From the IMG/VR virus record IMGVR_UViG_3300048575_000412, positions 1 through 50,102 of that record: a stretch of 50,102 nucleotides of DNA. One strand, 5' to 3'. The stretch comes from a virus. Its lineage: Duplodnaviria; Caudoviricetes. The notes beneath the pieces are model-generated. The model was not told where the DNA came from. It did no database searches and worked only from the letters and a program-made list of their open reading frames with translations. The translations under genes were made by a program, and so were the position numbers. Below are positions 5,574-42,780 of this stretch, piece after piece. Every line of letters begins with the position of its first letter. The first letter of the stretch is position 1.

Positions 5574-6182
5574 TCAGACCCTCGCCGCCACTTCCTGCGC
5601 CCGGTTCCAGTCCGACAGCGCATCCATGGTCATCCATGCGGCTGTGCTGACGGAGAGGAAGGCGGCGAGCGCCAGAAGGGCGAGGGTGAGGTCGGGATGG
5701 CGCGCCGACCACCGGGGAGGGACGGCGATCGGCGCCGGCACGCGCGCGCCGAACGGGGTCAGGTGGTCCGCTTGCGCGGCCGCCGGTTCGGCGTCATGCT
5801 GCGTGCGGGGATTGAAGGAAGGGGAACTGCAATGTTCAGACGTGCCGCCATCGTCGCAGTCGTCATCACGGAATTTGTATCGCCCGCTCTGGCCGATGAA
5901 GAAGGCAAGCGAAACGCCATGCACCACATTGCCAGCGTGCTCGCAGTCACCAAACTCTGCCCGAGCGTCGAGGCCAACATCACCAACCTGACGCTGGTCG
6001 GGGTCAGCCAGGGCATCGAAGTTGGTCCCGATGGCCCCGATGGCAGGATGATCGCCGCCGACGCCCGCTACCAGATCGAGTCGATGAAGGACACGCCTGT
6101 CGAACAGATCTGCATGTCGGCGCTGCTGCTCTACGGTGAAGGCGGGCTCAACGTTCCTGGACTGCTGCGCGAAAAGTGACAT
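5574..6182 (-). CDS. First ORF of the leftward operon (202 aa); C-terminal TM segment; N-terminal part overlies an antisense cargo gene
   Basis: ATG at 6182 with AGGAGAG RBS; stop 2 nt before next ATG (5571); C-terminus LTLALLALAAFLSVSTAAW looks like a genuine phage membrane peptide. Confidence 0.55.
   Translation of the reverse strand: MSLFAQQSRNVEPAFTVEQQRRHADLFDRRVLHRLDLVAGVGGDHPAIGAIGTNFDALADPDQRQVGDVGLDARAEFGDCEHAGNVVHGVSLAFFIGQSGRYKFRDDDCDDGGTSEHCSSPSFNPRTQHDAEPAAAQADHLTPFGARVPAPIAVPPRWSARHPDLTLALLALAAFLSVSTAAWMTMDALSDWNRAQEVAARV
5832..6179 (+). CDS. Secreted/periplasmic cargo protein (115 aa), antisense to operon
   Basis: AAGGAAGGGG RBS; signal peptide MFRRAAIVAVVITEFVSPALA|DE; two Cys; coding-like third-position bias. 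Confidence 0.75.
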   Translation: MFRRAAIVAVVITEFVSPALADEEGKRNAMHHIASVLAVTKLCPSVEANITNLTLVGVSQGIEVGPDGPDGRMIAADARYQIESMKDTPVEQICMSALLLYGEGGLNVPGLLREK

Positions 6183-6193
6183 GGGGCTCTCTC

Positions 6194-6300
6194 CTGTCGG
6201 TCGTTCCCGCCGGACCCCCGTCGCCGCCGCCAGGAGGCGTTGGCGGCGGCGACGGGCTGGCGGAGAAGTCCCGCTTCGGGATTGGCGGAACGAGCGACAG
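6194..6300 (-). other. Structured 5' leader of the leftward transcript (two adjacent stem-loops)
   Basis: Perfect 16-bp stem 6217-6232/6241-6256 with 8-nt loop; small hairpin TCCCG-N3-CGGGA 6269-6281; imperfect outer pairing 6194-6211/6284-6300. Confidence 0.6.
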
Positions 6301-6348
6301 TGTGCATAACGCACGTCATCCAGTCAACAGATAAAGTGCATAACGCAC
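6299..6348 (-). promoter_or_regulatory. pL-like promoter with two repressor operators
   Basis: TTGACT (6327-6322)-17 nt-CACACT; operators GTGCATAACGCAC at 6302-6314 and 6336-6348. Confidence 0.75.
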
Positions 6349-6414
6349 ATGTTGGGTGTGCGAAAGGCCTTCCCACGCTCTTACGTAGGAATCACGGATC
6401 GACGATGGTGAGAG

Positions 6415-7023
6415 TTAGCGCGGCCTGATCCAGTCGATCGGAGCGGCCCATTCGACCTGCTGGTCTTCAATATCGGGATAGAGCGGGTTCAGGCTCTGTA
6501 GCGTCCAGAGGGAATCGGTGGAGCCGCGGCGAAGGACTTTGACGAAGATCTTGCCATTGGCCAGCTGGACGACGCAGCGGCGGTTGACGAGGGATTCCGG
6601 TGGCATCAGTCTCGAATAGTAGAGGAGCGTACGATCCTCGTATGCCGGGAACATCGAGTCTCCGCTCACCTCGACGGCCACGGTTGTGGGGCTGCAATCC
6701 GCCGGCGCATCGACCGTTTCTTGGCCCCCGTCATCAATGGCATAGACTTCCGCCCCTGCGCCGACACGGCCCTTGAGTGGCACCTCGACGATCTGTCCGG
6801 GGCCTTGTCCTTCGCCGGTCAGGAGCCACGCCTCACTGACGCGCAAGGCCTTCGCATACTTGGCTGCGGCGCGCGATAGCCCGCGCGTGCCGTTCTCATG
6901 CTGCGCATAGGTATCGTAGGACCAGCCGAAGAATTTGGCGGCGGCCTTCGCGTCGTTGAAGCCCCGTTCGATACGGGCCTTCTCCAGGCGTTTTGCGGGT
7001 TCTGGGCGATCATCATAGCTCAT
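6415..7023 (-). CDS. cI: CI-like repressor (XRE HTH + S24 autopeptidase)
   Basis: HTH AAAKFFGWSYDTYAQHENG, WLLTGEG linker, VGAG cleavage site, GDSM serine and FVK lysine of S24; divergent from cro. Confidence 0.93.
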   Translation of the reverse strand: MSYDDRPEPAKRLEKARIERGFNDAKAAAKFFGWSYDTYAQHENGTRGLSRAAAKYAKALRVSEAWLLTGEGQGPGQIVEVPLKGRVGAGAEVYAIDDGGQETVDAPADCSPTTVAVEVSGDSMFPAYEDRTLLYYSRLMPPESLVNRRCVVQLANGKIFVKVLRRGSTDSLWTLQSLNPLYPDIEDQQVEWAAPIDWIRPR

Positions 7024-7026
7024 GGC

Positions 7027-7089
7027 GTGCATTTTGCACAATTTCGGTGTGCGTTTCGACTTGACATTGTCGTGTGCGTTATGCACATC
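7027..7089 (+). promoter_or_regulatory. pR-like promoter with operators
   Basis: TTGACA 7061-7066-17 nt-CACATC; operators GTGCATTTTGCAC 7027-7039 and GTGCGTTATGCAC 7074-7086; same geometry as pL. Confidence 0.78.
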
Positions 7090-7096
7090 ATGGGTC

Positions 7097-7291
7097 ATGC
7101 AAAAGGATATCGACATCAAATTGCTCCGGGAAAAACACGGTTGGACGCAGGATCAACTGGCCGAACAGCTAGGCGTCGATCGTTCCAGCATTTCCCGTAT
7201 GGAGAACGGTGGCCGCGTGCGCGGGCCCGTCCGAAAACTCCTGGAGAAGCTCTCCTTTGGGGAAGCCCTCCAAAGGGAGGCCGCCGAATGA
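7097..7291 (+). CDS. cro: Cro-like XRE HTH regulator
   Basis: IKLLREKHGWTQDQLAEQLGVDRSSISRMENG; divergent from cI. Confidence 0.88.
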   Translation: MQKDIDIKLLREKHGWTQDQLAEQLGVDRSSISRMENGGRVRGPVRKLLEKLSFGEALQREAAE

Positions 7292-7431
7292 TGTCCTGTC
7301 CGTCCTGCTCATGTTGCGGTCCCCCGTGATCTGATGGGCTGATCTTCTCAATTCCGAACCATTCCCGCCACGGGAAACGACGCCGGGTTTTCCCGGCGCG
7401 GGAAAGTTTTTTTGTCTTTGGAGCCAATGCG

Positions 7432-7923
7432 ATGGACGCTTTTCTCTTCCGCCTGAAGGCCGCCCAGTTCGATCTGATCGAAGCCTGCTGCGGCATCGAG
7501 CGCGCCGCTGAAAAATGCGGCTATGGCAAGACGACTGTGGGGCGCTGGAAGGATCGCAATGACCCGACTGTCATGCCGATCCCCGCCGTCGTTGCGCTGG
7601 AGGCCGATTGCGGCCGCGCCTTCGTCACCGCCGTCATGGCGGCCGCCAACAAGCGGCGGCTGACGGATCCGGAGGATGAGAAGGCGCAGCAGGCCGGAAT
7701 CCTGTCGGCCCATGCCGACCTGATGCAGCGCATGGCCGCGCTCGCCGGCGACGTGGCCACCGCCTATTCCGACGGCGTGGTCAGCCCGACGGAAGCCCAC
7801 ATCATCGATCGCGGGGCGTCGGAAGCGGAGCGTTCGCTGTCGGACTTCCGCCAGTCGATCGCGGGCGTCAAGGCCGCCGGCGGCGAGCGTGGCGGGCTGA
7901 AGATCATCGGGGAACACGAATGA
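7432..7923 (+). CDS. CII-family regulatory protein
   Basis: Position after cro; GIERAA...KTTVGRW HTH, DGVVSPTEA motif typical of phage CII family. Confidence 0.7.
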   Translation: MDAFLFRLKAAQFDLIEACCGIERAAEKCGYGKTTVGRWKDRNDPTVMPIPAVVALEADCGRAFVTAVMAAANKRRLTDPEDEKAQQAGILSAHADLMQRMAALAGDVATAYSDGVVSPTEAHIIDRGASEAERSLSDFRQSIAGVKAAGGERGGLKIIGEHE

Positions 7924-8162
7924 TGATCGCGCGCTCGCCGATTGAACCCGATCTTCTGCCGACCCCGGACATGTGTGTCATCGACTGCGACGGCGCGGTT
8001 TTCTCGATCGTCGCGCGCGGCGATGTCAAGGACGTGGCCGCTCTGGTCTCGGTCGAAGGCGCCCGCGACTGGCGCCCGCGCCGCGCCATCATGACCCGGA
8101 CGCTGAGCGATGCCTGGCCGGAGCGCAAGGCGACCGTGGCAAGCAAGGGGAAGCGTCGATGA
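7920..8162 (+). CDS. Hypothetical phage protein
   Basis: ATGA overlaps at both ends. Confidence 0.6.
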   Translation: MMIARSPIEPDLLPTPDMCVIDCDGAVFSIVARGDVKDVAALVSVEGARDWRPRRAIMTRTLSDAWPERKATVASKGKRR

Positions 8163-8587
8163 AGGATGTGGCCATCCGTCTGCAGTCGCATCCGCTGGTC
8201 GAGCTGGCGTGCCAGCACGCCGAGCGGCTTGGCTGCTCGCCGGAGAAGCTGTGCCTTGCGCTGCTGACGACCACCCTGCGGTCCGGCCTTGTCGACGGAA
8301 TTCTCGATGGAGACAGCCCGGACGAAATCTGCCCGCGCCATGGCGTCGTCGCCTGTAACTGGCCGCTTGGAAAGCGTCAGAAGCGAATATTGGCGCACAT
8401 CGTCTCCCATGCCGATGCCAACGGTCTTTTCTGCGGCTCCTATTCTGCCATCGGCGCGGCCACGGGCATCGTCGACGTCGCCAACTCGCTGCGCGCGCTG
8501 ATCCGGCGGGGCGAGATCGAGCGGGTGCGCATGGGAACGAACGCAAACCCGACCATCCTGCGAATTGCCAGCGGAGGGCAGGGTTGA
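8159..8587 (+). CDS. Hypothetical protein with C-terminal winged HTH
   Basis: MKDVAIRL...; SYSAIGAATGIVDVANSLRALIRRGEIER wHTH-like; ATGA coupling. Confidence 0.6.
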   Translation: MKDVAIRLQSHPLVELACQHAERLGCSPEKLCLALLTTTLRSGLVDGILDGDSPDEICPRHGVVACNWPLGKRQKRILAHIVSHADANGLFCGSYSAIGAATGIVDVANSLRALIRRGEIERVRMGTNANPTILRIASGGQG

Positions 8588-11196
8588 TGGATTACACCAC
8601 CTTCCTCAAGGACAAGGTGCAGATGGCCCCTTCGGGCGGCTTCGATGTTGCGCTCGACGAGATCAATCCCATACTGCTGCCGCATCAGAAGGCGATGGTC
8701 ATCTGGGCCTGCCGCGGCGGTCGCCGCGCGATCTTCGCCGCCTTCGGTCTCGGCAAGTCGATCATCCAGCTTGAAATCCTGCGCCTGGTCCTGTCGCGGT
8801 TCGGCGGGCGTGGCCTGCTGGTGCTGCCGCTGGGCGTGCGGCAGGAATTCCGCCGCGATGCCAGGACGCTCGAGACCGGCGATCATCCGAAGATCAGCGA
8901 TGCGCAGCGCAAGGCCCTCAGCCTCTGGCGCGCGGGACGCGCCGATCGCAACTACGATCTGGCCTTCATCCGCTCCGTCTCGGCCGCCGGCGAGACCGGG
9001 CTCTACATGACCAATTACGAGACGGTCCGCGACGGCAAGATCGACCCGCGCGCCTTCATGGCTGCCAGCCTCGACGAGGCGTCGTGCCTGCGCGGGTTCG
9101 GCGGCAGCAAGACCTTCCGCGAATTCATGCGGCTGTTCGACGGGATCCGCTTCAAGTTCGTCGCCACCGCGACGCCGAGCCCGAATGAATTCATCGAACT
9201 GCTGGCCTATTCCGCATTCCTCGAGGTCATGGATGTCGGGCAGGCGAAGACCCGGTTCTTCAAGCGCAATTCGGAGAAGGCGGACACGCTGTCCATCCAT
9301 CCCCACAAGGAACGCGAATTCTGGCTCTGGGTCGCCAGCTGGGGCCTGTTCGTCGAGCGGCCTTCCGATCTCGGTTTCTCCGACGAGGGCTACGACCTGC
9401 CGGACATGGTGGTCAACTGGCACGAGCTGCCGGCCGATCACGCCGGGGCGGGCACAGAGAAGAACGGGCAGGGCAGGCTGCTGCGCAACGCGGCCGCTTC
9501 GCTGTCCGAAGCGGCGCGCGAAAAACGCGACAGCCTGTCTGCCCGGATCGACAAGATGATGTCGCTTCGCGCCGAGGACCCGGACGCCCATCGGCTGATC
9601 TGGCACGACCTCGAGGCGGAGCGTCATGCGATCGAGGCGGCCATCCCGGGCATCGCCACGGTCTACGGCGCCCAGGACCTCGATCATCGCGAGCAGTCGA
9701 TCATCGACTTTTCCAACGGCGAACTGCCGGAGCTGGCGGGCAAGGCCTCGATTATGGGCTCGGGCTGCAATTTCCAGCGGCACTGCCATTGGGCGATCTT
9801 TCTCGGCATCGGCTTCAAGTTCAACGACTTCATCCAGGCCGTCCACCGCATCCAGCGATTCCTGCAGACGCACACCGTGCGCATCGACCTGATCTACACC
9901 GAGGCCGAGCGTCCGGTGCGCGACAGCCTCGAAGCGAAATGGCGCAGGCATATCGAGCAAAGGGCCATCATGACCAAGATCATCAAGAAATTCGGGCTTT
10001 CGGCCGCCGCCATGGCCGAGACCCTGCAGCGGTCCATGGGCGTCGAGCGGATCGAGGTTTCCGGGCCGGGCTATCGGCTCGTCAACAATGATTGCGTGCT
10101 GGAGTGCCAGCAGATGGCGGAAAACAGCGTCGACCTCATCGTCACGTCGATCCCGTTTTCGACGCAGTACGAATATTCGCCGAACTATGCCGACTTCGGC
10201 CACACCGACGACAACGAGCATTTCTGGAAGCAGATGGACTTCCTGATCCCGGAACTGCTGCGGGTGCTCTCGCCCGGCCGCGTGGCGGCAATCCATGTGA
10301 AGGACAGGATCGTCCCGGGCGGCATGACAGGCCTCGGCTTCCAGACGGTCTATCCCTTTTCCGACGATTGCGTCGCCCGCTTCAAGAGCCACGGTTTCGC
10401 ATTCCTGTCGCGCAAGACGATCACCACCGACGTCGTGAGGGAGAACAACCAGACCTATCGCCTCGGCTGGTCCGAACAGTGCAAGGACGGCAGCCGCATG
10501 GGCAATGGCATGCCGGAATATCTGCTGATCTTCCGCAAGCCGCCATCCGACGCGTCGAACGGCTATGCCGACAGCCCGGTGAAGAAGGACAAGCGCGAAT
10601 GGGTCGGTGCCGCCGGCGCCTGGACGCATCCGGAAGGCTATTCCCGCGCCCGCTGGCAGCTGGATGCCCATGGCTACATGCCGAGCGGCGGAAACCGTCA
10701 GTTGACGCCGCAGGAGTTCGCCGGCCTCGAGCATCACCAGATCTTCAAGCTGTGGAAGCGCTACAGCCTCGATGCCGTCTACGACTTCGAGCACCACGTG
10801 AAGATTGCCGAAGCGCTGGAGGAAAAGGGCATGCTGCCTTCGACCTTCATGCTCCTGCCGCCGCATTCCAAGCATGAAGACGTCTGGACGGACGTTACCC
10901 GCATGCTGTCGATGAACACGCTGCAGGCTGCGGCCGGCAAGGAAATGCATCTGTGCCCGCTGCAGTTCGACATCGTCGACCGGGCGATCGCGCAATATAC
11001 CGAGCCGGGCGAGACGGTGTTCGATCCCTTCGGCGGGCTGATGACCGTTCCCTACCGCGCGATCGGCAAGGGACGCAAGGCGATCGCCAGCGAACTCAAC
11101 CCCGCCTATTTCCTCGACGGCTGCAAATATGTGGAAGCGGAAGCGCGCCGCATGGCCATGCCGAGCCTCTTCGATCTGATGGAGGCGGCCGAGTGA
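8587..11196 (+). CDS. SF2 (SNF2-like) helicase fused to amino-DNA methyltransferase (N4C/N6A, beta-class order)
   Basis: AFGLGKS (Walker A), LDEAS, TATPSPN, QAVHRIQRF; then NNDC..SVDLIVTSIPF (motif IV), HLCPLQ, VFDPFGG (motif I), ELNPAY. Confidence 0.9.
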   Translation: MDYTTFLKDKVQMAPSGGFDVALDEINPILLPHQKAMVIWACRGGRRAIFAAFGLGKSIIQLEILRLVLSRFGGRGLLVLPLGVRQEFRRDARTLETGDHPKISDAQRKALSLWRAGRADRNYDLAFIRSVSAAGETGLYMTNYETVRDGKIDPRAFMAASLDEASCLRGFGGSKTFREFMRLFDGIRFKFVATATPSPNEFIELLAYSAFLEVMDVGQAKTRFFKRNSEKADTLSIHPHKEREFWLWVASWGLFVERPSDLGFSDEGYDLPDMVVNWHELPADHAGAGTEKNGQGRLLRNAAASLSEAAREKRDSLSARIDKMMSLRAEDPDAHRLIWHDLEAERHAIEAAIPGIATVYGAQDLDHREQSIIDFSNGELPELAGKASIMGSGCNFQRHCHWAIFLGIGFKFNDFIQAVHRIQRFLQTHTVRIDLIYTEAERPVRDSLEAKWRRHIEQRAIMTKIIKKFGLSAAAMAETLQRSMGVERIEVSGPGYRLVNNDCVLECQQMAENSVDLIVTSIPFSTQYEYSPNYADFGHTDDNEHFWKQMDFLIPELLRVLSPGRVAAIHVKDRIVPGGMTGLGFQTVYPFSDDCVARFKSHGFAFLSRKTITTDVVRENNQTYRLGWSEQCKDGSRMGNGMPEYLLIFRKPPSDASNGYADSPVKKDKREWVGAAGAWTHPEGYSRARWQLDAHGYMPSGGNRQLTPQEFAGLEHHQIFKLWKRYSLDAVYDFEHHVKIAEALEEKGMLPSTFMLLPPHSKHEDVWTDVTRMLSMNTLQAAAGKEMHLCPLQFDIVDRAIAQYTEPGETVFDPFGGLMTVPYRAIGKGRKAIASELNPAYFLDGCKYVEAEARRMAMPSLFDLMEAAE

Positions 11197-11675: not shown

Positions 11676-12202
11676 CCGCGATTCAGATCTTTGGCGACAA
11701 GCCGTTCGACATGAACCCGGCGCGGTTCGAGGCGCTGGCCGACCACCAGAAGGGCGAGCTGGTGCGGCTGATGTCCGAGCGTGGCTATGGCAAGGCGGCG
11801 CTGGTCAAGATCCTCGGCCAGCCGCTGGACCGGATCGTCGGTCTCTACCGTGAACGGAGCGCCTTCAGGACCGCCGCCTTCGACCGGGCGACCGGCGAGG
11901 ATTTTCCGCCGGCCAAGCAGGGGCGGACCGTCCGCGGGACGCTTTCAGCCCGGGCCGAGCGGATCCTGCTTTTGATTGCCCGTTCGGGCGGCCGGATCAA
12001 CCATAGTTTCCATGCGCTCGAGCTCGAAGCTGGCCTGTCGTCCTCGGCGGCCAAGGTGGCAGTCGGCAAGCTCTTGGAGCGCGGCCTCATCCTGCGCGAA
12101 TCGACCGACACGCGCGGCCGCTCCACCTTCGTCCTGACCGACAAGGGCGGGGCATTGGCCGACACGCTGACCACAAGCGGCGAGGGTGGTGGCGATGCGT
12201 GA
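11672..12202 (+). CDS. Winged-HTH (MarR-like) protein
   Basis: LELEAGLSSSAAKVAVGKLLERGLILRE...RGRSTFVLTDKG. Confidence 0.65.
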   Translation: MTAIQIFGDKPFDMNPARFEALADHQKGELVRLMSERGYGKAALVKILGQPLDRIVGLYRERSAFRTAAFDRATGEDFPPAKQGRTVRGTLSARAERILLLIARSGGRINHSFHALELEAGLSSSAAKVAVGKLLERGLILRESTDTRGRSTFVLTDKGGALADTLTTSGEGGGDA

Positions 12203-12503
12203 GCGGAAACCGAAAATCCTGCTGGTCGTCGCGCCGAGCATTACCGAGGCCCACAAGACGGCAAAGGCCCATGGTGTCGATCCGCAGGCCTGCGACGGAT
12301 TGCTGCGCACTGTCACCAACGCGCACCATTTGCGCGGCTGGAGCCATGGCACGCCCGTCATCTTTACCAACCGCGCCACCTGGGGCCGCAGCGCCGCGGC
12401 GCTGGCGCTCGACACGGCGCTCGACGCCTACCTGCGCACTGGCCGCCTGCGCCTCGCCGGCGACGCCGACATCATCGAACTGAAAGGGGAGATGCGGGCA
12501 TGA
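12195..12503 (+). CDS. Hypothetical phage protein
   Basis: MRERKPKILLVVAP...LRGWSHGTPV; 8-nt overlap with upstream gene. Confidence 0.6.
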   Translation: MRERKPKILLVVAPSITEAHKTAKAHGVDPQACDGLLRTVTNAHHLRGWSHGTPVIFTNRATWGRSAAALALDTALDAYLRTGRLRLAGDADIIELKGEMRA

Positions 12504-14410
12504 CTTTCGAGCTCTCCCGGATCTCCGGATATTCTACTCGCGATGACGCGCGAGATCGCAGAACGCCGTACCTTCATGTTTGTCGGCCGGGCTTGGTCCG
12601 CCGCGCGAACCGATCAGGTCTCAATTGTCTTCATCAACGCCATCAGATGTGTCCTGAAGGCTTTAACGTCGCTGCCGAAGTGAGCCTGCCTGTGGCAGTT
12701 AGGGCAGAGGGCAATGACATGCCTGGGATCGTCTGGGCCGCCGTCAGAGACGCGACGGATATGGTGGGGCTCGAGGTATGGAGTGCCTGTAGGACGCAGG
12801 AAGGGGGCCTTCGCTTTGCATTTCTCGCAGTGCCCGCCAGCCCTCGCAAGAACGTAGTCGCGCACGTCGGCAGAACGTTGGTAGATGTTCCGTGTCGCGT
12901 TGGCCGACGGGACGGAAGCTCTGGCCGCAGCATATGCTCTGGTTCGCAGAACAGACAGATCTCCGGCGGCACTCGGCGGGATCTGCGCTTCGACGACATC
13001 CGCCACAACGTCGAGCGGACGAAGTTCGAAAACGATTGCCTGGCGTGGCTTGCCTTCGCTGTCCTCCCCCTCTTCCCAATGCCATCCCTGGCAGATCATC
13101 TCATCTTTGAAGACGATGTGTCGGAGCGGGTATTCCTTTTCAAAAAAGAGCAGAGATTTTCCGTCGAGCAAGTGATTGGCAATCGCCTTGTTGCCGCCCG
13201 TCAACGTCATGTCGCCTCTCTGACCCTCGCCAAAGTACTCGATCAGACCATCGGCGTGCTGGCGATCGTTGTAGCCGTACTCGAGACCGCGTTTCCCACT
13301 TATGATGAAGATGACCGGGTGGCTCGCCGGCGTAATGATTCCACTCTGTCTTTGGCCGCCATATTTGGCGTGAATGTCATTGCGACGATTATAGGCAGTG
13401 CCGCGTTCAAAGCCAAAACTCATGAATTCTACCTCCGAAAACTGCACAGCTTGCCCTTTGTGTGCACGATGACAAGCGGCGGTACTGCGCTGGTCGTGTG
13501 TGTGCGGGTCACGTGCGAGCAGGCGCTCAATACCATGGACAGAGCCTCGGGGTGCGTCTTGGCCCAGACAGCTGACGGTTTCGGCCAGGACTTGGCAAAC
13601 CCTGCCATGTCCAACTCGCTACGCGAGCATGCCTTCATACCTTGCTGCCAGGGTCGAATGCTCGTGCACCGGGCCGAGAAGAGCGGTCTGCACGAGTACT
13701 CCGATCGAGTGCTGACGGTGATCAATCAAAGCATTGTCTTTGCCCATCGCAATGATCGTTATCTTGATGTTGTGGGGCCCTTCCTGACGGTTTTCCCATC
13801 CTGGGACGACCAAGGGTGGATCAAATACTATGTCATTTCCGAAGGACACGTTCTCATCGTCAATCTCAACGTTCCAGACCCGGAAAGAGAGCTCAAAGCT
13901 GGTGACAATAAACGAGTGCAACAGAAGTGTTCGTCGGTTCCAGTTGACGATTCGAATTACCAATTCCTCGTTTGCGTCGGTCCGCGGAAGCAAGTCAATC
14001 GTCGGAGGTGCGTCCCCAAGCTGAAAATCCGTTTGCTTCTGTGCTGCCTCTGCTTGTTTGAACAGGCTTCCGATCGTGAAAGCCGCCGCTATAGCCGCCG
14101 CCCATCCGCTCAAGGCGCCGACCCAAGTTACGAGACAATTGGCAGTTCCGTCACACAGGGCCCTCTGGGAGATTGGGTTGCCAAATATGAGGCACGCCCC
14201 AATGGCAGAGACCACAATTGGACCGAGCCATCGCATGACTTTGTCCGGAATATCGGTTTTCATTTTGCCCCCTACCTATCCGCAACCGATGATAATCACC
14301 GGCAGCATGGAAGTTCAATGGCGGAGCCCAGCCTGACCTTCCACGCATCGTGTCTCCGTCTGCGCCGCGGCGCTATTGCCAAAGGCGATAGTGAGGGATG
14401 CGCGGCATGA
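12500..14410 (+). CDS. 636-codon bridging ORF overlying two antisense cargo genes; protein function doubtful
   Basis: ATGA-coupled to upstream stop (12500-12503) with AAGGGGAG RBS and ATGA-coupled to primase start (14407-14410); no recognisable domain. Confidence 0.4.
   Translation: MTFELSRISGYSTRDDARDRRTPYLHVCRPGLVRRANRSGLNCLHQRHQMCPEGFNVAAEVSLPVAVRAEGNDMPGIVWAAVRDATDMVGLEVWSACRTQEGGLRFAFLAVPASPRKNVVAHVGRTLVDVPCRVGRRDGSSGRSICSGSQNRQISGGTRRDLRFDDIRHNVERTKFENDCLAWLAFAVLPLFPMPSLADHLIFEDDVSERVFLFKKEQRFSVEQVIGNRLVAARQRHVASLTLAKVLDQTIGVLAIVVAVLETAFPTYDEDDRVARRRNDSTLSLAAIFGVNVIATIIGSAAFKAKTHEFYLRKLHSLPFVCTMTSGGTALVVCVRVTCEQALNTMDRASGCVLAQTADGFGQDLANPAMSNSLREHAFIPCCQGRMLVHRAEKSGLHEYSDRVLTVINQSIVFAHRNDRYLDVVGPFLTVFPSWDDQGWIKYYVISEGHVLIVNLNVPDPERELKAGDNKRVQQKCSSVPVDDSNYQFLVCVGPRKQVNRRRCVPKLKIRLLLCCLCLFEQASDRESRRYSRRPSAQGADPSYETIGSSVTQGPLGDWVAKYEARPNGRDHNWTEPSHDFVRNIGFHFAPYLSATDDNHRQHGSSMAEPSLTFHASCLRLRRGAIAKGDSEGCAA
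12614..13423 (-). CDS. SRA-like + HNH endonuclease (McrA-type, putative modification-dependent restriction)
   Basis: GGAGG RBS; N-terminal IHAKYGGQRQSGI...GY.D...YFGEGQRGDM..GN.AI SRA-like; C-terminal CEKC...YLEPHH...GGPD...VIALCPNCHRQAH HNH. Confidence 0.88.
   Translation of the reverse strand: MSFGFERGTAYNRRNDIHAKYGGQRQSGIITPASHPVIFIISGKRGLEYGYNDRQHADGLIEYFGEGQRGDMTLTGGNKAIANHLLDGKSLLFFEKEYPLRHIVFKDEMICQGWHWEEGEDSEGKPRQAIVFELRPLDVVADVVEAQIPPSAAGDLSVLRTRAYAAARASVPSANATRNIYQRSADVRDYVLARAGGHCEKCKAKAPFLRPTGTPYLEPHHIRRVSDGGPDDPRHVIALCPNCHRQAHFGSDVKAFRTHLMALMKTIET
13619..14263 (-). CDS. Membrane protein of unknown function (two N-terminal TM helices)
   Basis: WLGPIVVSAIGACLIFG and WVGALSGWAAAIAAAFTI hydrophobic segments; GGTAGGGGG RBS; visibly more A/T than flanking phage genes. 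Confidence 0.75.
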   Translation of the reverse strand: MKTDIPDKVMRWLGPIVVSAIGACLIFGNPISQRALCDGTANCLVTWVGALSGWAAAIAAAFTIGSLFKQAEAAQKQTDFQLGDAPPTIDLLPRTDANEELVIRIVNWNRRTLLLHSFIVTSFELSFRVWNVEIDDENVSFGNDIVFDPPLVVPGWENRQEGPHNIKITIIAMGKDNALIDHRQHSIGVLVQTALLGPVHEHSTLAARYEGMLA

Positions 14411-15696
14411 GCACGATCCTCGACAAATTCATCATCCGCGCTCGCGAAGTCTCCTTTGCCGATGCCTGCGACCGGCTGAAAATCCCGGACGCGCCGAAGG
14501 GCAAGCCGGAATATCAGGGGCCATGCCCGGCCGAGGGCGGCAAGGATCGCTTTTCGGTCAACCGAAAAAAAGGCGTCTGGAACTGCCGCGGATGCTCGAC
14601 CGGCGGCCATGACGGGATCGGCCTTGCCGCCCACTGGCTCGGTCTCGATCTGCGCAACCGGGCGCAATTCCTGCTGGCCTGCGCGGCCGTGCTCTGTGAA
14701 CCGGTTCCGTCCGAAGGCGAGCGCGAGACGGACGAGGAGCGCGAGGCTCGACTAGCCCGCATTGCCGCGGCCAAGGCCCGCACCGAGCAGCGCCGCGCCG
14801 ACAACGAGAAATCGGCGGGAGACTATCGGGCCAAGGAAATCAGCAAGGCGCGCGGCCTGTGGCTGCATGCCGTCGACTGCGGTGCCGACGGAAAAGAGGC
14901 CGTGCGCGGCGCAACCGTGATCGCCGGCTATCTCAAGGCCCGCACCGGCTTCGACGTGCCGGGCGGAGTGTTCGATCACCTACGCTTCATTCCCGCCTGC
15001 ACCTACTGGCATGGGCAGGACGATCTCGGCAGGCCCCTGCCGATCTATAGCGGCCCCGCCATGGTCGCGCCCTTCGTTGACCCGGATGGCCGGATCGTCG
15101 GCTGTCACCTGACATGGATCGATCTCGGCCGCGCGCCAAAGCACCGACCGGATCTCGGCCTCGACGAGAAGGGCGAACCGCTTCCGACCAAGAAGATGCG
15201 CGGCGCGAAGAAGGGCGGGTTGATCCCAGTCTTCGGTGATCCGCAGGCCCGGCGCTGGGTTGGCGGCGAGGGGATCGAGAGCGTGGTCGCCATTGCCGGC
15301 CCGGAGGGTTTTCGCGCCGACACCTTCTATTTCGCCGCCGGCGACATCGGCAATCTGGCCGGCCCGGCTGATCCCGATTTCGCCTTCTTCCATCCGACGT
15401 TGAAAAAGCAGGACGCGGCCGGCCGGTGGAAGCGGGTGAAGGTCAAGGGGCCGGTGCCCCGGCAGGCGCAAGGCCCGGACGAAGCCGTCCAGGTGCCCGA
15501 TCACGTGATCGAGCTGGTGCTGATCGCCGACGGCGACAGCGAGCCGGTGGCAACCGCCTCCGACATGGCCCGCGCCGAGGCACGGCTCGGCCGGGAAGGG
15601 CGCACCGTCACCACCTGGTGGCCGCCGGAAGGACAGGATTTTGCCGACGCCATGGTGGCCGCGATGGCGCAGGAAGACGGGGCAGGGAATGACTGA
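14407..15696 (+). CDS. DNA primase-like protein (P4-alpha-type Zn domain + Toprim)
   Basis: GPCPAEGGKDRF...WNCRGC; GCHLTWID; GEGIES and LIADGD Toprim motifs; PPEGQDFAD. Confidence 0.85.
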   Translation: MSTILDKFIIRAREVSFADACDRLKIPDAPKGKPEYQGPCPAEGGKDRFSVNRKKGVWNCRGCSTGGHDGIGLAAHWLGLDLRNRAQFLLACAAVLCEPVPSEGERETDEEREARLARIAAAKARTEQRRADNEKSAGDYRAKEISKARGLWLHAVDCGADGKEAVRGATVIAGYLKARTGFDVPGGVFDHLRFIPACTYWHGQDDLGRPLPIYSGPAMVAPFVDPDGRIVGCHLTWIDLGRAPKHRPDLGLDEKGEPLPTKKMRGAKKGGLIPVFGDPQARRWVGGEGIESVVAIAGPEGFRADTFYFAAGDIGNLAGPADPDFAFFHPTLKKQDAAGRWKRVKVKGPVPRQAQGPDEAVQVPDHVIELVLIADGDSEPVATASDMARAEARLGREGRTVTTWWPPEGQDFADAMVAAMAQEDGAGND

Positions 15697-31848: not shown

Positions 31849-31860
31849 CAGGACAAATCG

Positions 31861-35055: not shown

Positions 35056-35063
35056 GGTCCATC

Positions 35064-36365: not shown

Positions 36366-36432
36366 CGCTGTCTTTCTTTGCCCATCCCGCCCTTGGGCAA
36401 GGCGACCCTTCTCGAAATATGAGGATTGAACC

Positions 36433-37938
36433 ATGACCAGCCCGGTCTTCGGTATCACCATTGCACGTGATGCCAACGAGGCGGCAACGCCGTCCAATGC
36501 CCAGATGAGCGTCATCGGCATCTGCATGCCGATCGACAAGGCAACGACCGCCTCCACGGAAGTCTTTGCTGCGGCCTTTCCGCTCGACACCCCGGTTCGC
36601 CTGAACTCCAACGAGACCGCCGTTCTCGCGCTCTGCGACCAGGACGGCGACTTCATCGACGCGATCGAGGGGATCAACGCGCAGCTCGGCTCCTACCAGA
36701 TGGCGGCCGAGCTGGTGGTGGTGCGTGTCGAGGAAGGGGTCGACATCGAGGAGACGATGGCTAACATCGCCGGCAGCTCTGTCTCGGGCACGGGTATCCA
36801 CGCGTTCCTCAATGCCGGCGCCGAGGTCGGGGTCTATCCCCGCCTGCTGATCTGCCCCGGCTTCACCCTCGACCGCGATACCGGCGTCACCAGCGTGACG
36901 ATCACCAACCAGGGTTCTGGCTATACCAGCGCGCCGACGGTTGCCTTTACCGGTGGCGGTGGCACGGGGGCCGCCGGCACCGCCGTGCTCGGTTCCGGCG
37001 CCGACGCGGAGAAGGTCGTGAGCGTGACGATCACCAATCCGGGCTCCGGCTATACCAGCGCGCCGACCGTCGCATTCTCGGGCGGAGCCGGTTCTGGCGC
37101 GGCCGGCACGGCAGTGATCGCCGACATGGCGAACCCGGTCGCGGCAGCCCTGCCGGCGGTGTGTGAGCAGATCCTTGCGGTCGCGATCGTCGACGGTCCG
37201 GAGACGCTGGCCGAGTTCACCGAATGGGTCGAAACCCTGTCGTCCCGCCGGCTGATCCCGCTGGCCGGTGGCGTGTATGCCGAGGACAACAGCGGTGCCG
37301 CGGTGCTTCGTCCGGCCTCGCCGCGCATCGCCGGCGTTGCCGTCCGGCGCGACTATGAAAGCGACGGCTCGCCGTTCCGCAGCTGGGCCAACCAGCCGAT
37401 CTACGGCATCACGGCGCCGGAGCGTAAGCTGCGCTTCTCGCTTTCCGACGGTGCGACCGAGGGGCAGCAGATCCTGGCCGCCAAGGGCGGGATCATCGTG
37501 CGCGGCGAATCGGGCGACGACTTCGCCATCGCCGACGGTGGCTTCGTCTATATCGGCACGGACAACCTCGCGGCCGATACGATCTGGGACCAGTACCACA
37601 AGGTGCGCGGCCGCGATTACATCGAGCTGACGGTGCTGCGGACCATTCGCCAGTATCTCGGCCGCTTCAACCTGACGACCCAGACGATCCAGAGCGTGGT
37701 CAACACGGTCTCTGGCGTCTGCGACCAGCGCCAGTCGGCCGGAGACATACTCGGCTATCGTTGCCGCTTCGACCCGGTGAAGAACAACCCGGCCGACCTG
37801 CGCGCCGGGCACATCCATGTCGACATGCAGTTCGAGGAGGCCCCGGTTTTCCGCCGCCTGTCGGTCACCTCGCGGCCCTATGCGGCGGCGCTCACCGCGA
37901 CGATCGACGAGATTATCGCGCGCCAGGACATCCTCTAA
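36433..37938 (+). CDS. Tail sheath protein
   Basis: PRLLICPGF, PASPRIAG, SWANQ.I.GI, LRAGHI.VD. Confidence 0.92.
   Translation: MTSPVFGITIARDANEAATPSNAQMSVIGICMPIDKATTASTEVFAAAFPLDTPVRLNSNETAVLALCDQDGDFIDAIEGINAQLGSYQMAAELVVVRVEEGVDIEETMANIAGSSVSGTGIHAFLNAGAEVGVYPRLLICPGFTLDRDTGVTSVTITNQGSGYTSAPTVAFTGGGGTGAAGTAVLGSGADAEKVVSVTITNPGSGYTSAPTVAFSGGAGSGAAGTAVIADMANPVAAALPAVCEQILAVAIVDGPETLAEFTEWVETLSSRRLIPLAGGVYAEDNSGAAVLRPASPRIAGVAVRRDYESDGSPFRSWANQPIYGITAPERKLRFSLSDGATEGQQILAAKGGIIVRGESGDDFAIADGGFVYIGTDNLAADTIWDQYHKVRGRDYIELTVLRTIRQYLGRFNLTTQTIQSVVNTVSGVCDQRQSAGDILGYRCRFDPVKNNPADLRAGHIHVDMQFEEAPVFRRLSVTSRPYAAALTATIDEIIARQDIL
36885..37120 (+). repeat. Tandem duplicated module inserted in sheath
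   Basis: SVTITN(Q/P)GSGYTSAPTVAF(T/S)GG.G.GAAGTAV twice, conserved at DNA level. Confidence 0.85.
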
Positions 37939-37966
37939 TCGTCACCTCACGGAAGGACTGAACATC

Positions 37967-38500
37967 ATGGCTGAGAAGCTTCTCCTGCTCGAGCAGGCCA
38001 ACATCTTCCTCGGTGACGCGAACCCCGAGGATTCCAACCACATCAAGCTCGCCTCGGTCGGCCTGCCGACGCTGGAACGGGTCACCGCCTCGCATCTGGG
38101 CGGCGGCGCGATCTCCGAGGTCAACTGGTCGATGAACGCCTATCGCGCGCTCGAGCCGACCTTCAAGCTCGCCGGCTTTTCCGAGAGTTCCTATCGCCTG
38201 CTCGGGATCGGCTCCTCGGAAGCGCAGCGCTTCACCATCTACGGGATCCTGCGCAACAAGGAGACCGGCAAGCAGCACCAGGCCAAGGCCATCGTGCGCG
38301 GCATCATCGGCCGGCTCGCCGCCGACGCCTTCGAGCGCGCCTCGGCCTTCGGCCACGACCATGGCATTACCGAGGTGACGCGCTACGAGCTGCATGTCGA
38401 CAATCAGGAATGGTTTTACATGGACTACTTCTCGTCCGTCGTGCGGCAGTTAGGCAATGACGAAACCCATGCCATGCGTGTCGCGCTGGGGATCGAATGA
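37967..38500 (+). CDS. Tail tube protein (P2 FII-like)
   Basis: GAAGGA RBS; LP.L...H..GG, LEPTFKLAG, RYEL; follows sheath. Confidence 0.85.
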   Translation: MAEKLLLLEQANIFLGDANPEDSNHIKLASVGLPTLERVTASHLGGGAISEVNWSMNAYRALEPTFKLAGFSESSYRLLGIGSSEAQRFTIYGILRNKETGKQHQAKAIVRGIIGRLAADAFERASAFGHDHGITEVTRYELHVDNQEWFYMDYFSSVVRQLGNDETHAMRVALGIE

Positions 38501-38973: not shown

Positions 38974-38977
38974 TCCC

Positions 38978-40837
38978 TTGAGCCGACTGACCGCCTCGCT
39001 CGTCGTCGACCTGGTCGACAAGACCGGCGCCAAGACCCAAGCCATCATCGGCAATATGGACCGTCTGAAGCGGGCCGAGCGCGACTATATGCTGGCCGAC
39101 CGGGGCGTGCGGCTCTCGAACCGCGACCGGGCGCTCGAGCGGATGATGATGGAGCGGCAGGCCGCCGACGAGGCCCGGCGGCAGAAGATGATGTTTCTGG
39201 CAAGCCGCATCGGAACCGGCGTGGCGATCGGTGGCGTGATGGCGGCCAAGGCCTATACCAACTTTGCCGACCTGGAGCGGCGAGTGAACCGCATCGTCAT
39301 CAACGCCGACAAGGGGGCAGGGGCGATCGACCCGACCATCCGCAGGCTCCAGCAGGTTGCCGACCTGACCCGCACCAGTTTCGACGAGGTCGTCGGAGGC
39401 CTCGAGGCGCTTGTCGCATCCGGGCGAAGCTTGGACGAATCGCTCGCCTTTCTGTCCGCGGTGGCGCTCACCGCGCAGGCGTCCGGTGCGGCGATGAACG
39501 ACGTGGCGCTGACGGCCGATGCCATGTCGTCCTCGCTCAAGATCAATGCCGACGAGATGCAGCGGGCCTTCGACATTCTGGTCGCGGGCGGCAAGGCTGG
39601 CAAGTTCGAGCTGAAGGACATGGCGCAGTATCTGCCGTCGCTGCTTCCGGCCATGTCGGCCATGGGCTACGAGGGGACAGAGGGCCTGCAGAAGGTCGTC
39701 GCCATGCTGCAGGTGATGCGCAACCAGGCGGGCTCCAGCTCGGAGGCCGCGACCTATCTCGGCAATGTGCTGAACAAGGTCTATTCCGAGGAGACAGCCT
39801 CCAAGTTCAAGAAGATGGGCGTCGACCTTCCCGGGGCTCTCGCCAAGGCGAAGAAGGAAGGCCGCGACGTGCTCGACGTCTTCCTCGACATGACGATGAT
39901 CGCCACCAAGGGCGACCTGTCGAAGTTGCCGAAACTGTTCACCGATGCGGAATTCCAGAAAGGCATGCGTGCGCTGATCATGCAGCGGCCGGAACTGGAA
40001 GCCATGGTGAACAGCCTTGGCAATGTCGACGGAACGGCGCTCAAGGATTTCGGGCAGATCGCCGAGGACAGCGCGGCCAAGATCCAGAAACTTTCGAACC
40101 TCTGGGACAAGTTCGTCACACAGGTCGGCGGCGGGGTAGCGACGATTGCAAACCCGACGCTCGAATATCTCACGCAAGAGGTCGACGACTTCACCGCGCG
40201 GCTGAACGCCAAGAGCGCGTTTCCGATCAACAACGTCGAAGACCAGCGCAAGGAAGGCGATGCCTACAAGGCCCGCTATCGGCAGAAACATCCCGATGCG
40301 TGGTTCTGGCAGGTCAACGAGGCCTACATGGACGCGCAGGCGAAGGTCGGTCGCGGCGAGCAGGCGACGGTCTTCGACGAACTCAGCAAGGCATCGGTCG
40401 GGCGGCAGAACCAGCCGATCCCGCGCGGCATGCCCGCCCCGAGGCAGCGCCCGCAGAAGAACGCGTTCGGCCTCTACGATAACCCCTATCGCTACGGCAA
40501 TGGTCATGAGGAAATGATGGCCGCTCAAGGCCGCATGGAAGCGAATGCAACGCCCGTTCCGCTGGACAAGGCAGCCGAAGGTTTCATGGATTTTCATGGA
40601 CTGGTTGAGGCCGGCAGCACCGCCTCCGACAAGATTGCTGAGGGCGGTGGCAAGGCCGGGCAGAAGGCGGCCGAGACCATGCAGGCGGGGGCATCGGGGA
40701 TCGGCGCCGCCATTGCGCAGAGTTTCCTCGCCAAGGTGCAGGGCTCGCTCGGCGCGCTGCTGGCCAATGCCGGCGGCGGTCGGCCGACGGGGCAGGTCGT
40801 CAAAGAACAGGCCAATGGCCAATTCGTGGATCCCTAA
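38978..40837 (+). CDS. Tape measure protein
   Basis: TTG start with GAGGAG RBS; AFDILVAGGKAGKFELKDMAQYLP core. Confidence 0.9.
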   Translation: MSRLTASLVVDLVDKTGAKTQAIIGNMDRLKRAERDYMLADRGVRLSNRDRALERMMMERQAADEARRQKMMFLASRIGTGVAIGGVMAAKAYTNFADLERRVNRIVINADKGAGAIDPTIRRLQQVADLTRTSFDEVVGGLEALVASGRSLDESLAFLSAVALTAQASGAAMNDVALTADAMSSSLKINADEMQRAFDILVAGGKAGKFELKDMAQYLPSLLPAMSAMGYEGTEGLQKVVAMLQVMRNQAGSSSEAATYLGNVLNKVYSEETASKFKKMGVDLPGALAKAKKEGRDVLDVFLDMTMIATKGDLSKLPKLFTDAEFQKGMRALIMQRPELEAMVNSLGNVDGTALKDFGQIAEDSAAKIQKLSNLWDKFVTQVGGGVATIANPTLEYLTQEVDDFTARLNAKSAFPINNVEDQRKEGDAYKARYRQKHPDAWFWQVNEAYMDAQAKVGRGEQATVFDELSKASVGRQNQPIPRGMPAPRQRPQKNAFGLYDNPYRYGNGHEEMMAAQGRMEANATPVPLDKAAEGFMDFHGLVEAGSTASDKIAEGGGKAGQKAAETMQAGASGIGAAIAQSFLAKVQGSLGALLANAGGGRPTGQVVKEQANGQFVDP

Positions 40838-40840
40838 ATC

Positions 40841-41260
40841 ATGCTGATGCAGATCGGGCCGGTTGCCTTCGACCTTCGCTTCAATCTCGACGGGCTGTCG
40901 CGCGAGACGCTGCGCGACTTCGCCGAAAAGCCGGTGGTCGGCGCGATGCCTCCGCTCGAGGACATGGGCGACGGGGTGGAGCGCATGGCGCTCGCCGGTC
41001 GGCTTGTGCCGCAGAAGCTTGGCCGGCTGTCGTCGCTCGACGTGCTGCGCAGCGCGCAGGCGACCGGGCTGCCGCAGCTTCTGGTGCGCGGCGACGGCCG
41101 GGTGTTCGGCTGGTACGTGATCATCCGCATCACGGACGGCCATAGCTTCCTCGACGCGCGCGGAGTGGGCCAGATGGTGGACATGACCATCGACCTTGCC
41201 AAAACGAGCCAGCCGACCGGCCAGGGCTATTTCTCGGCATTGTGGAGCCTCCTGTCATGA
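40841..41260 (+). CDS. Tail protein gpU-like
   Basis: MLMQIGPVAF, LVRGDG.V.GWYVI, G..Q. Confidence 0.85.
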   Translation: MLMQIGPVAFDLRFNLDGLSRETLRDFAEKPVVGAMPPLEDMGDGVERMALAGRLVPQKLGRLSSLDVLRSAQATGLPQLLVRGDGRVFGWYVIIRITDGHSFLDARGVGQMVDMTIDLAKTSQPTGQGYFSALWSLLS

Positions 41261-41490
41261 GCGAGACGGAAACGGTCACGGTCAGGCGTGAGGGCCTGAC
41301 GCTTTCGGGCCTGCTGGCGCGGCACTATCGCGCCGTCATTCCGGGCGTCTGCGAACAGGTCTGGGCGCTCAACCAGGACCTGGCGCGCCGCGGCGCCGAA
41401 TTGCCGCTCGGAACGGTGGTCACCGTGCCGGTCAAGTCGTCGATCGAGACCGCCGCCGCCGGCGTCAAGGTTACGGGGCTGTTCGACTGA
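41257..41490 (+). CDS. Tail protein X (LysM-like)
   Basis: TLSGLLARHY...LNQDLA...LPLGTVVTVP. Confidence 0.85.
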   Translation: MSETETVTVRREGLTLSGLLARHYRAVIPGVCEQVWALNQDLARRGAELPLGTVVTVPVKSSIETAAAGVKVTGLFD

Positions 41491-42506
41491 TGGCTGGCAG
41501 GGTTCATTTCCTCGTTTCGGTCAGCGGGCGGGTGGTGACACGCAATTTCCTGCCCATCCTGCTGTCGGTGTCGATCACCAAGGGCACGGACCAGACGGCG
41601 GACACGGCACGCTTCGATCTCGACGACAAGGGCGGGACGTTGCGCTGGCCGGAGACGGGCACGCCTGTTCATGTCGAACTGGGCCGGGAGGGCGGCGCCA
41701 TCCGATCCTTCGACGGCGAGGTCGACACCGCGAGCTGGGCGCTATCGCGCTCTTCCGGGGCGGTGCTGTCGGTGACGGCACGCTCTGTCTCGCTCAAGGG
41801 CAAGGCCAAGCAACCCGCAGAGAAGCATTGGGAAAAGAAAGCATTGCCGAACATTCTTAAGGAAGCAGGTGAGCAGGCCGGAATAACCATGCAGGTGCAC
41901 GGCGATTTCGCTTCCGTCATCCCGGACTGGGAGGCGATGGACGCCGAGAGCTTCATTTCCTTCGGGGAACGGCTGGCGCGCGAGCATGACGCCATCTTCC
42001 GGATCGAGGGCACGCGCGGGGTATTCGTGCCCTACGGAGCCTCGGCCTCGGGGGCGGGTCTTTCGGCGATCGCGGTGACCCGCGACAGGATGATCTCCGC
42101 CTCGGGTTTTGCGCCGGTGACCGACCGCCCGCGGCTGAAGGAAAAGGTCGAGACCTACTACGACCTCGACGAGGCGAAGCGCGTGGCCGAACGCTATGCC
42201 AGCGGCGACGATGTCGAGGCGGACGGGCAGGCGACTTTCGCCGCGGCCGACAAGGACACGGCCAAGCGCCGTGCCAAGGCCGGGGCGGCCAAGGCGAACC
42301 GCGACAAGGCGAGTGGCAGCGTCACCATTGACGGCGACGCCACCGGCCAGCCGGGCGGCACGGCGACGCTCATGGGCCTGCGCGCCGGTGTCGACGGCAC
42401 CTACACGATCACGTCGATCACCGACGAGCTGTCGCGGTCGTCCGGATACACCACCACGCTCTCGCTGGGAGAGCCGCAGGGCAGTGCGGGTCAGGACGGC
42501 CGGTAA
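41490..42506 (+). CDS. Baseplate hub / late control protein D
   Basis: ADTARFDLDD, ESFISFGERLARE, G.RAGVDGTY.I, GYTT.L.L. Confidence 0.88.
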   Translation: MAGRVHFLVSVSGRVVTRNFLPILLSVSITKGTDQTADTARFDLDDKGGTLRWPETGTPVHVELGREGGAIRSFDGEVDTASWALSRSSGAVLSVTARSVSLKGKAKQPAEKHWEKKALPNILKEAGEQAGITMQVHGDFASVIPDWEAMDAESFISFGERLAREHDAIFRIEGTRGVFVPYGASASGAGLSAIAVTRDRMISASGFAPVTDRPRLKEKVETYYDLDEAKRVAERYASGDDVEADGQATFAAADKDTAKRRAKAGAAKANRDKASGSVTIDGDATGQPGGTATLMGLRAGVDGTYTITSITDELSRSSGYTTTLSLGEPQGSAGQDGR

Positions 42507-42516
42507 ACCGCATCAA

Positions 42517-42780
42517 ATGGCTTGTTCAAGACGTCTCGTCCTCGAGCGCCTCGACGAGGGCTGTCATCTCGTCCGTCGTCAGCACCCGGATTTCGCCGAA
42601 GCCCAGGCTGTTGACGAAGATTACGATCCAATGGCCGCCGGAAACATGGATGGCCAGATGAAAGGTCTGCTGAATTTCGGTCATGGCTTTCCTCCTTTGC
42701 CAGACCAGGAAAGCGTGGGCGCCGATCTCCCGCTAGTCACAGATTTGCAAGTCGAAGTCGCGATGTTTCAGGCCATCTGA
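42517..42780 (+). CDS. 87-aa bridging ORF overlying an antisense small gene; function doubtful
   Basis: ATG 10 nt after gpD stop; stop followed 6 nt later by an ATG (42787) in frame with endolysin. Confidence 0.3.
   Translation: MACSRRLVLERLDEGCHLVRRQHPDFAEAQAVDEDYDPMAAGNMDGQMKGLLNFGHGFPPLPDQESVGADLPLVTDLQVEVAMFQAI
42526..42684 (-). CDS. Small antisense cargo protein (52 aa), below the ORF-track cutoff
   Basis: AAAGGAGG RBS; MTEIQQTFHLAIHVSGGHWIVIFVNSLGFGEIRVLTTDEMTALVEALEDETS. Confidence 0.6.
   Translation of the reverse strand: MTEIQQTFHLAIHVSGGHWIVIFVNSLGFGEIRVLTTDEMTALVEALEDETS

Follow-up and report, generated by a model that had tools for sequence, protein, structure and literature searches.

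The question raised by IMG/VR record IMGVR_UViG_3300048575_000412 is how genes can be carried antisense within the operons of a phage, and what the open reading frames (ORFs) are that run over such genes on the operon strand. The record is a whole phage of 50,102 bp (GC content about 64 %), and this entire stretch is referred to below as the window. Four genes, here called cargo, oppose their surroundings in exactly three internal places (sites 1, 2 and 3), and their GC content is 0.54, compared with 0.64 for the phage. A first-pass annotation of the sequence had reported three such sites, each with a stop-free operon-strand ORF in exact codon register over the insert. Both statements hold: the strand map shows the four cargo genes at three sites, and all three operon-strand frames are present and exactly in register with their cargo. 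One further candidate for an opposing gene, 37913–38395 on the minus strand, was rejected as the shadow of a real structural gene (phrog_55). Judging from the sequence comparisons described here, we consider it likely that the operon-strand ORF over the antisense cargo at site 2 serves as a translated spacer, or 'bridge'. For the ORF at site 1 this is probable, and for that at site 3 possible.

The site 2 bridge is bounded at each end by a 4 nt ATGA overlap (coordinates are in Table 1). Its ATG lies on the TGA of an upstream gene, here named 'up', with GGGGAG 8 nt upstream, and its TGA lies on the ATG at 14407 of a primase gene, with GAGGG upstream. This ATG is a better primase start than 14398. 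The marks of a coupled gene, namely a Shine–Dalgarno (SD) motif with overlapping start and stop codons, are found at site 2 and family-wide, and site 1 has an SD and a 2 nt gap at its end. The first-pass statement that each ORF starts at a ribosome-binding site (RBS) or beside the upstream stop, and ends at or next to the following start, is accurate for site 2, with an SD and ATGA at both ends. The starts listed for sites 1 and 3 had to be corrected, and site 3 shows neither an SD nor an overlap. Beneath the site 2 bridge lie cargo 1, which encodes a predicted HNH nuclease, and cargo 2, here called geneA. Neither contains a single TTA, CTA or TCA codon, and this is despite the fact that 31 % of the other four-fold codons in geneA end in A. 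The spacer between the two has a probability of about 0.19 of being open in the bridge frame. GeneA, the spacer and the HNH gene together form one minus-strand frame across 12614–14263 that is broken only by the TAG at 13619–13621.

The first-pass annotation had also cautioned that in-register shadow ORFs are common at such GC content, and this is the case, as the in-register antisense frame is fully open for 26 of the 47 genes present, and gene borders elsewhere in the window are crossed by shadows of 713 and 795 amino acids (aa). Using a model that combines genome codon usage with Markov-resampled flanks, the probability of an open frame was approximately 0.35 for site 1, 0.2–0.5 for site 3 and 0.002 for site 2, where the value includes a factor of 1/3 for two cargo genes in one register. 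As only the site 2 value is low, the window by itself singles out site 2 only. The possibility that all three are ordinary shadow ORFs, produced by a GC content of 64 % and extending to their neighbours by accident, gains from these figures for sites 1 and 3, and from the finding that 13 of 22 control shadows end in NTGA (N, any nucleotide). Its standing at site 2 depends on the relatives of the two cargo genes there.

Single-protein scans of viral contigs recovered one locus for the HNH gene and none for geneA, and alignments were needed as queries. The geneA set comprised 21 loci from species-representative genomes and 34 from viral contigs; after eight duplicate loci were dropped there were 48 genes, including that in the window. 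Forty of the 48 are without TTA, CTA and TCA, and each lies wholly under an in-register opposite-strand ORF. This automated count includes L017 among the unbridged genes, its match having started further upstream; anchored at 4001, L017 has a 598-codon open frame with an ATGA end. The 40 open genes contain no antisense stops in 8,735 codons, whereas 59 would be expected from the usage of their neighbours, which is rich in G and C at third codon positions (GC3), or 169 from the genes' own use of A at third positions (A3). The ends are equally consistent. An RTGA end (R, A or G) overlapping the start of an operon-strand ORF of 60 aa or more is found in 34 of the 40 bridges, compared with 5 of the 22 control shadows that were not at a locus edge. 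At the other end, the bridge start overlaps the upstream stop by 4 nt in 23 of 40 and is no more than 25 nt from one in 32 of 40, and SD-like motifs precede both junctions throughout the family. Among ordinary ORFs in the same loci, used as controls, an antisense stop is absent from only 26 of 93, and the co-directional geneA homologs (L003, L019, L020 and L022) have three to four antisense stops each. For site 2, relatives thus keep a coupled open frame beyond the level in controls, a comparison that the first-pass annotation had suggested; sites 1 and 3 yielded no DNA relatives in which to look. An earlier use of the 9 of 21 geneA homologs without TTA, CTA or TCA as an ordinary-usage control was withdrawn, as those loci carry the same architecture.

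Two observations on individual geneA loci are recorded here. L012 is a prophage locus with a geneA paralog on either side of its primase gene (3698–4480 and 6648–7355); each paralog has a separate bridge with 4 nt overlaps, and a HicA/HicB-like pair, assigned by eye, also lies under the second. In L009 and L010, the geneA products are 92 % identical (identity 0.93, 0.95 and 0.93 at the three codon positions), and a single CTA gained by the L010 gene interrupts the bridge there, perhaps a recent loss.

The HNH family gives a second, larger comparison. With an alignment of four homologs as query, 80 viral loci were retrieved; 76 are distinct, and 74 of these have no geneA nearby. Of the 76, 42 are bridged and the other 34 have 1–18 antisense stops. 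In the bridged genes (43 with that of the window), TTA or CTA accounts for 0 of 730 leucine codons and TCA for 0 of 493 serine codons, with other four-fold families A-ending at a frequency of 0.16. In 27 non-bridged genes with GC3 of 0.50–0.72, the A-ending frequency is 0.19, and TTA or CTA makes up 97 of 502 leucine codons (19 %) and TCA 58 of 438 serine codons (13 %). The expected number of stops is 4.8 per bridged gene, and none is seen in the 43; grouped at 70 % identity, the bridged set makes 23 clusters. Of the 42 bridges, 26 terminate in RTGA on an ORF of 60 aa or more, and 25 overlap the upstream gene at their start. Replication genes are the usual neighbours: 8 of 10 sampled ORFs flanking seven bridged HNH loci match replication families (primase, D5-type helicase, DnaB, MT-A70 methyltransferase and, marginally, RuvC) and two have no match.

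These results leave little room for chance. In both families, stop counts are bimodal at like GC3, being either zero or mostly 2–12 (range 1–18), and codon usage alone does not account for openness at site 2 or in the families, though it does for sites 1 and 3 taken alone. Open frames persist even at low GC3, as in L043/L156, where a 524-codon bridge covers HNH and geneA genes with GC3 of 0.33–0.39 between a marginal RuvC-like match and DnaB helicase. Nor are the ends unrelated to the neighbours, as the junction frequencies given above for bridges and control shadows show; the junctions fall on verified gene starts, and cargo of more than one gene is held in one register. For site 2 chance is refuted, and as an account of the whole we regard it as very improbable. 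That selection keeps frames of the site 2 type open and coupled, across two cargo families, is strongly supported by these comparisons.

Table 1. Positions of the genes, ORFs and other features discussed, numbered from the first nucleotide of the window
Feature	Position	Strand	Remarks
GNAT acetyltransferase gene	4846..5571	-	ATG 5571 behind GAGGG; downstream of site 1 ORF
Minus-strand block	5-7119	-	Genes include SSB, dNMP-phosphatase-like protein, GNAT and S24 repressor
Site 1 operon-strand ORF, 202 codons	5574..6182	-	SD AGGAGAGAG before ATG 6182
Site 1 cargo, 115 aa secreted-type protein	5832..6179	+	RBS; signal-peptide-like N-terminus; in register with site 1 ORF
S24 (LexA/CI-type) repressor gene	6415..7119	-	Upstream of site 1
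Plus-strand block	7432-49900	+	Methyltransferase, primase, D5-like helicase, then structural genes and lysin
'up' gene, 105 aa, no family match	12186..12503	+	TGA overlaps bridge ATG
Site 2 bridging ORF, 636 codons, stop-free	12500..14410	+	ATGA overlap at each end; no family match
Cargo 1, HNH nuclease (predicted), type IV methyl-directed restriction-like, 269 aa	12614..13423	-	RBS GGAGG before ATG 13423
Inter-cargo spacer, 65 codons (195 nt)	13424..13618		Stop-free in bridge frame and cargo frame
Cargo 2 (geneA), 214 aa membrane protein	13619..14263	-	In the register of the bridge
Promoter-like site, TTGAAC-18-TATCAT	14289..14318	-	Upstream of geneA, inside bridge ORF; candidate cargo promoter
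Primase gene, Zn ribbon and DUF7146	14407..15696	+	Start ATG overlaps bridge TGA
gpD-like tail/baseplate gene	41490..42506	+	Upstream of site 3
Site 3 operon-strand ORF, 87 codons	42517..42780	+	ATG 10 nt after upstream stop; no SD seen
Site 3 cargo, 52 aa	42526..42684	-	Strong RBS GGAGGA
In-frame leader, 34 codons	42787..42888	+	Ahead of conserved lysin start; not in close relative L070

A frame that is kept open might be kept for its product. In true dual coding, the bridge would encode a functional lytic protein antisense to a lysogeny-expressed cargo gene, for which gene 10 and olg1 of Pseudomonas phage Fc02, as reported, provide a precedent (PMC9936078), and in SD, start junction and stop junction the bridging ORFs do look like real operon genes. 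However, the codon alignments give little sign of selection on a bridge product. For geneA, identity is 0.39, 0.46 and 0.30 at codon positions 1, 2 and 3, which identifies the cargo frame as the selected protein and the synonymous sites as saturated. The aa identity among geneA bridges is 0.140, equal to that of a null in which synonymous codons were resampled (0.137±0.002). For HNH bridges it is 0.269 against a null of 0.260±0.002, a small excess that favours dual coding and could come from residual common ancestry. As identity is near the null, it is openness, register and junctions that are conserved, and not sequence. Purifying selection on both frames, the hallmark of dual coding, was not found, and no bridge ORF matches any family in Pfam, PHROGs, PADLOC or NCBIfam. 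Moreover, one bridge in one register covers several kinds of cargo (geneA, HNH gene and HicB-like gene), and as the combinations are unrelated and occur in either order, its product is not one protein family. At site 1, the last approximately 85 residues of the ORF are kept in two relatives (P0059 and P0061), including the one whose N-terminal part differs, which speaks for a coding role there. Taking these points together, dual coding appears quite unlikely and a translated spacer is preferred. The converse, that the site 2 cargo is the shadow of a genuine 636 aa ORF, was ruled out by the family matches of the cargo, the geneA homologs and the codon-position test.

Some cargo identities, namely the HicA/HicB-like pair in L012 and a 352 aa membrane protein in L013, are by eye only. 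The HNH gene is repeatedly found together with geneA, following it in the window and preceding it elsewhere (L041, L043 and L018), and the pair may be a two-gene defence module.

The place of site 2 in related phages was also examined. The primase gene is carried by 13 related phage loci (L023–L035), and in 8 of the 13 a homolog of 'up' is also found upstream of the slot. The interval between 'up' and the primase gene is a variable hot spot of 0.2–3.2 kb, usually filled with forward genes, which include DNA methyltransferases and PAPS-reductase-like genes; antisense cargo is found in other relatives. In several of the eight loci, the forward genes have a 4 nt overlap with the upstream stop, the primase start or both. 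Homology to the closest relative, L023, breaks at 12503 and returns at 14408, which are the two ATGA junctions. In L025, the last ORF of the slot (313 aa, no family match) covers an antisense HicB-like gene (phrog_497) in register and ends in ATGA on the primase start. By eye, the two junctions in the window (12487–12503 and 14391–14410) are alike over about 14 nt with one indel. An insertion duplication and a common SD-ATGA grammar are not separable as sources of this likeness, and the right junction of L023 differs.

Untranslated RNA is a substrate for Rho, and genes are coupled where start and stop codons overlap by 4 nt and the SD lies within the ORF before. Classical coupling joins functional genes, whereas here one coupled 'gene' appears to exist only for translation. 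We propose that ribosomes leaving the upstream gene would re-initiate at the first SD-plus-ATGA junction and cross the cargo in the sole antisense frame from which synonymous change alone, namely avoidance of TTA, CTA and TCA, can remove every stop. Termination would then fall within the second SD-plus-ATGA junction, where the next essential gene (primase, DnaB or D5 helicase) starts. Both junctions are of the kind that coupled genes in these operons have generally. Selection would act on the absence of stops, on the common register of cargo and spacers and on the two junctions, and not on the peptide. The likely benefit would be continuity of the lytic operon, with no long untranslated RNA exposed to Rho and coupling intact, and the defence-type cargo would be expressed in the lysogen from its own promoter. 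In the first-pass proposal, lytic transcription would in addition silence the cargo by antisense. That the ORF is full-length and begins at the upstream stop points to selection for continuous ribosome cover and not for mere re-initiation near the next gene. Such cover fits protection from Rho and, equally, protection of the RNA.

The frame could be open for a benefit of another kind, if ribosomes block pairing with the cargo mRNA and cleavage by RNase III, or if a cassette bounded by ATGA recombines cleanly. The second variant draws on the L023 comparison, in which cassette boundaries are ORF boundaries, and on the gene-precise modules (methyltransferases and PAPS-reductase-like genes), coupled at both ends, that fill the slot in relatives; that the downstream genes have their own SD is also in keeping with such benefits. 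However, ease of recombination accounts for the junctions and not for avoidance of three codons at saturated synonymous sites, and the RNA-protection variant still needs translation, differing from the mechanism proposed above only in the benefit. We consider these possibilities unlikely.

Several findings weigh against a translated spacer, or against its generality. Antisense stops are present in 34 of 76 HNH and 8 of 48 geneA homologs. Among the former, at least L177 and L187 are embedded antisense, with PHROG-verified methyltransferase and primase-polymerase genes in their flanks, and have 2–4 antisense stops and no full bridge; L005 and L014 resemble these two. The context of most non-bridged HNH loci was not callable, strand heuristics being noisy at 50–57 % GC, and the context calls for unbridged loci rest on hand-checked cases. 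The loci share ancestry, hence there are fewer independent events than the counts suggest. With an SD of their own, the downstream genes may not need coupling, and the small excess of identity in HNH bridges was noted above. Within the window, chance could account for sites 1 and 3. The junctions of site 3 lack both an SD and an ATGA overlap, and the 3' third of the site 1 ORF may be real coding sequence, or a small gene without its own start, for which the part over the cargo serves as leader. In a search of sequencing runs, none contained more than 0.15 of the sampled words of the locus. Hence the first-pass proposal of a general cargo-acquisition strategy is upheld in part: unrelated cargos and the open frames of 40 of 48 geneA and 42 of 76 HNH genes argue for it at site 2, but there is nothing comparable at site 3 and only two relatives at site 1, and L177 and L187 are unbridged.

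Among known systems, morons are autonomous prophage units that usually have their own promoter and terminator. The cargo described here resembles morons and defence islands in its low GC content, in its defence-type content (HNH/type IV restriction-like and HicB-like) and in its variable slot, but no terminator is evident and the cargo is wrapped in an operon-strand ORF. A 2019 preprint on 929 genomes reported that antisense ORFs avoid stops without protein-level selection and proposed no function. As here, the ORFs are in register (-1) and stops are avoided via synonymous choice in the annotated gene. However, the preprint gives no context, and its text mentions neither 'phage' nor 'translational coupling', whereas the bridges lie over antisense cargo in phage replication operons, have SD-plus-ATGA at both ends and show a contrast between bridged and non-bridged members within a family. 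In Pseudomonas phage Fc02, the lytic-operon gene 10 is antisense to the lysogenic olg1/olg2, and both products are reported to be active in exclusion (PMC9936078). The likeness is of a lysogeny-expressed exclusion-type gene lying antisense under an early lytic ORF, an arrangement conserved among related phages. The part of that paper considered here proposes no bridging or anti-polarity role, and in the present case the operon-strand sequence is unconstrained and the cargo unrelated. Thus, stop avoidance without protein selection was already known; a coupled bridging ORF over antisense phage cargo, as predicted here from sequence, was not found described in the literature, supplements being outside the scope of that search.

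We are somewhat inclined to go further and to see in the bridges an unrecognized class of ORF, in which hundreds of codons would be selected only against stops and at their junctions, as ribosome tracks on which temperate phages would carry defence cargo backwards within essential, coupled operons, with cargo and bridge together forming a gene-shaped cassette that swaps from phage to phage at ATGA junctions. If so, selection would act on the translation of hundreds of codons independently of the product, and it would be explained how defence genes expressed in lysogeny can lie antisense in lytic operons without breaking them. Cargo could then be recognized by a simple rule, namely zero TTA, CTA and TCA codons, one register and ATGA junctions on the opposite strand, and annotators would be warned that either strand may be called at such loci. 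Such loci would also provide a natural system for the study of Rho polarity and coupling, since a stop can be placed in the bridge by altering a single cargo codon synonymously, and the genome-wide avoidance of stops in antisense ORFs without protein selection, hitherto unexplained, would be given a function.

The products of the site 2 cargo genes were examined individually. Cargo 1 matches Pfam HNH (PF01844, 1.3e-08, 35.3 bits against a cut-off of 21.4), which places an HNH domain in it, as well as phrog_15103 (3.2e-76) and PADLOC mREase_IV (2.6e-19). In its C-terminal HNH region, histidine and cysteine columns are invariant in four aligned sequences, and its N-terminal approximately 170 residues gave no named domain in the Pfam or PHROGs scans. 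It is, on these matches, a predicted HNH/type IV restriction-like nuclease. GeneA has 47 homologs, in Rhizobiales-type genomes. Its predicted structure comprises two N-terminal membrane helices and a C-terminal beta-sandwich (AF2 pLDDT 86), for which a fold search returned generic Ig-like beta-sandwich matches only, and a function is not assignable from the fold. Two promoter-like sites were found compared with a mean of 1.0 in shuffled sequences, hence it is position and not significance that supports the candidate cargo promoter in Table 1. No terminator-like site was seen after the HNH gene.

At site 3, the ORF as listed (42196–42780, plus strand) starts 310 nt inside the upstream gene. The frame is that of the lysin gene itself, broken by a single TGA at 42778–42780, and the conserved start and RBS of the lysin gene are those of the ATG at 42889, not 42787. 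Relative to L070, the window contains an insertion of 364 bp (42507–42870), to which the 34-codon leader belongs; two ORFs tiled in the lysin frame span it. The site 3 cargo has one good homolog cluster among 1.8 billion representatives and no homolog in 79 lysin-neighbour loci. Scans returned no DNA loci for this cargo, for the site 1 cargo or for the GNAT neighbour of site 1. Comparatively, site 3 is unsupported.

At site 1, the listed ORF (5574–6314, minus strand) has a GTG start within an operator-like repeat, and the credible start is the ATG at 6182, which abuts the stop codon of the cargo. The frame ends with the TGA at 5574–5576, 2 nt before the ATG of the GNAT gene at 5571. The cargo has six homologs of 54–88 % identity, with a conserved core behind the signal-peptide-like N-terminus. 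Of the two protein relatives of the ORF (P0059 and P0061), one is 202 aa at 74 % identity and the other is 220 aa and has in common with it only the last approximately 85 residues, differing in its N-terminal part. These indicate that the frame is kept open in relatives, and they weakly support site 1 at the protein level. The last approximately 85 residues (5574–5831 in the window), highly conserved in both relatives, include a hydrophobic stretch. A 13 nt palindrome, GTGCGTTATGCAC, occurs twice (6336–6348 and 6302–6314) around TTGACT (6322–6327), just downstream of the S24 gene, and together these look like a candidate operator/promoter of the minus-strand unit that starts with the site 1 ORF. 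A GC-rich hairpin with a 16 bp stem and no T-run lies at 6217–6256. On the plus strand it follows the stop codon of the site 1 cargo by 38 nt, and on the minus strand it immediately precedes the SD of the site 1 ORF.

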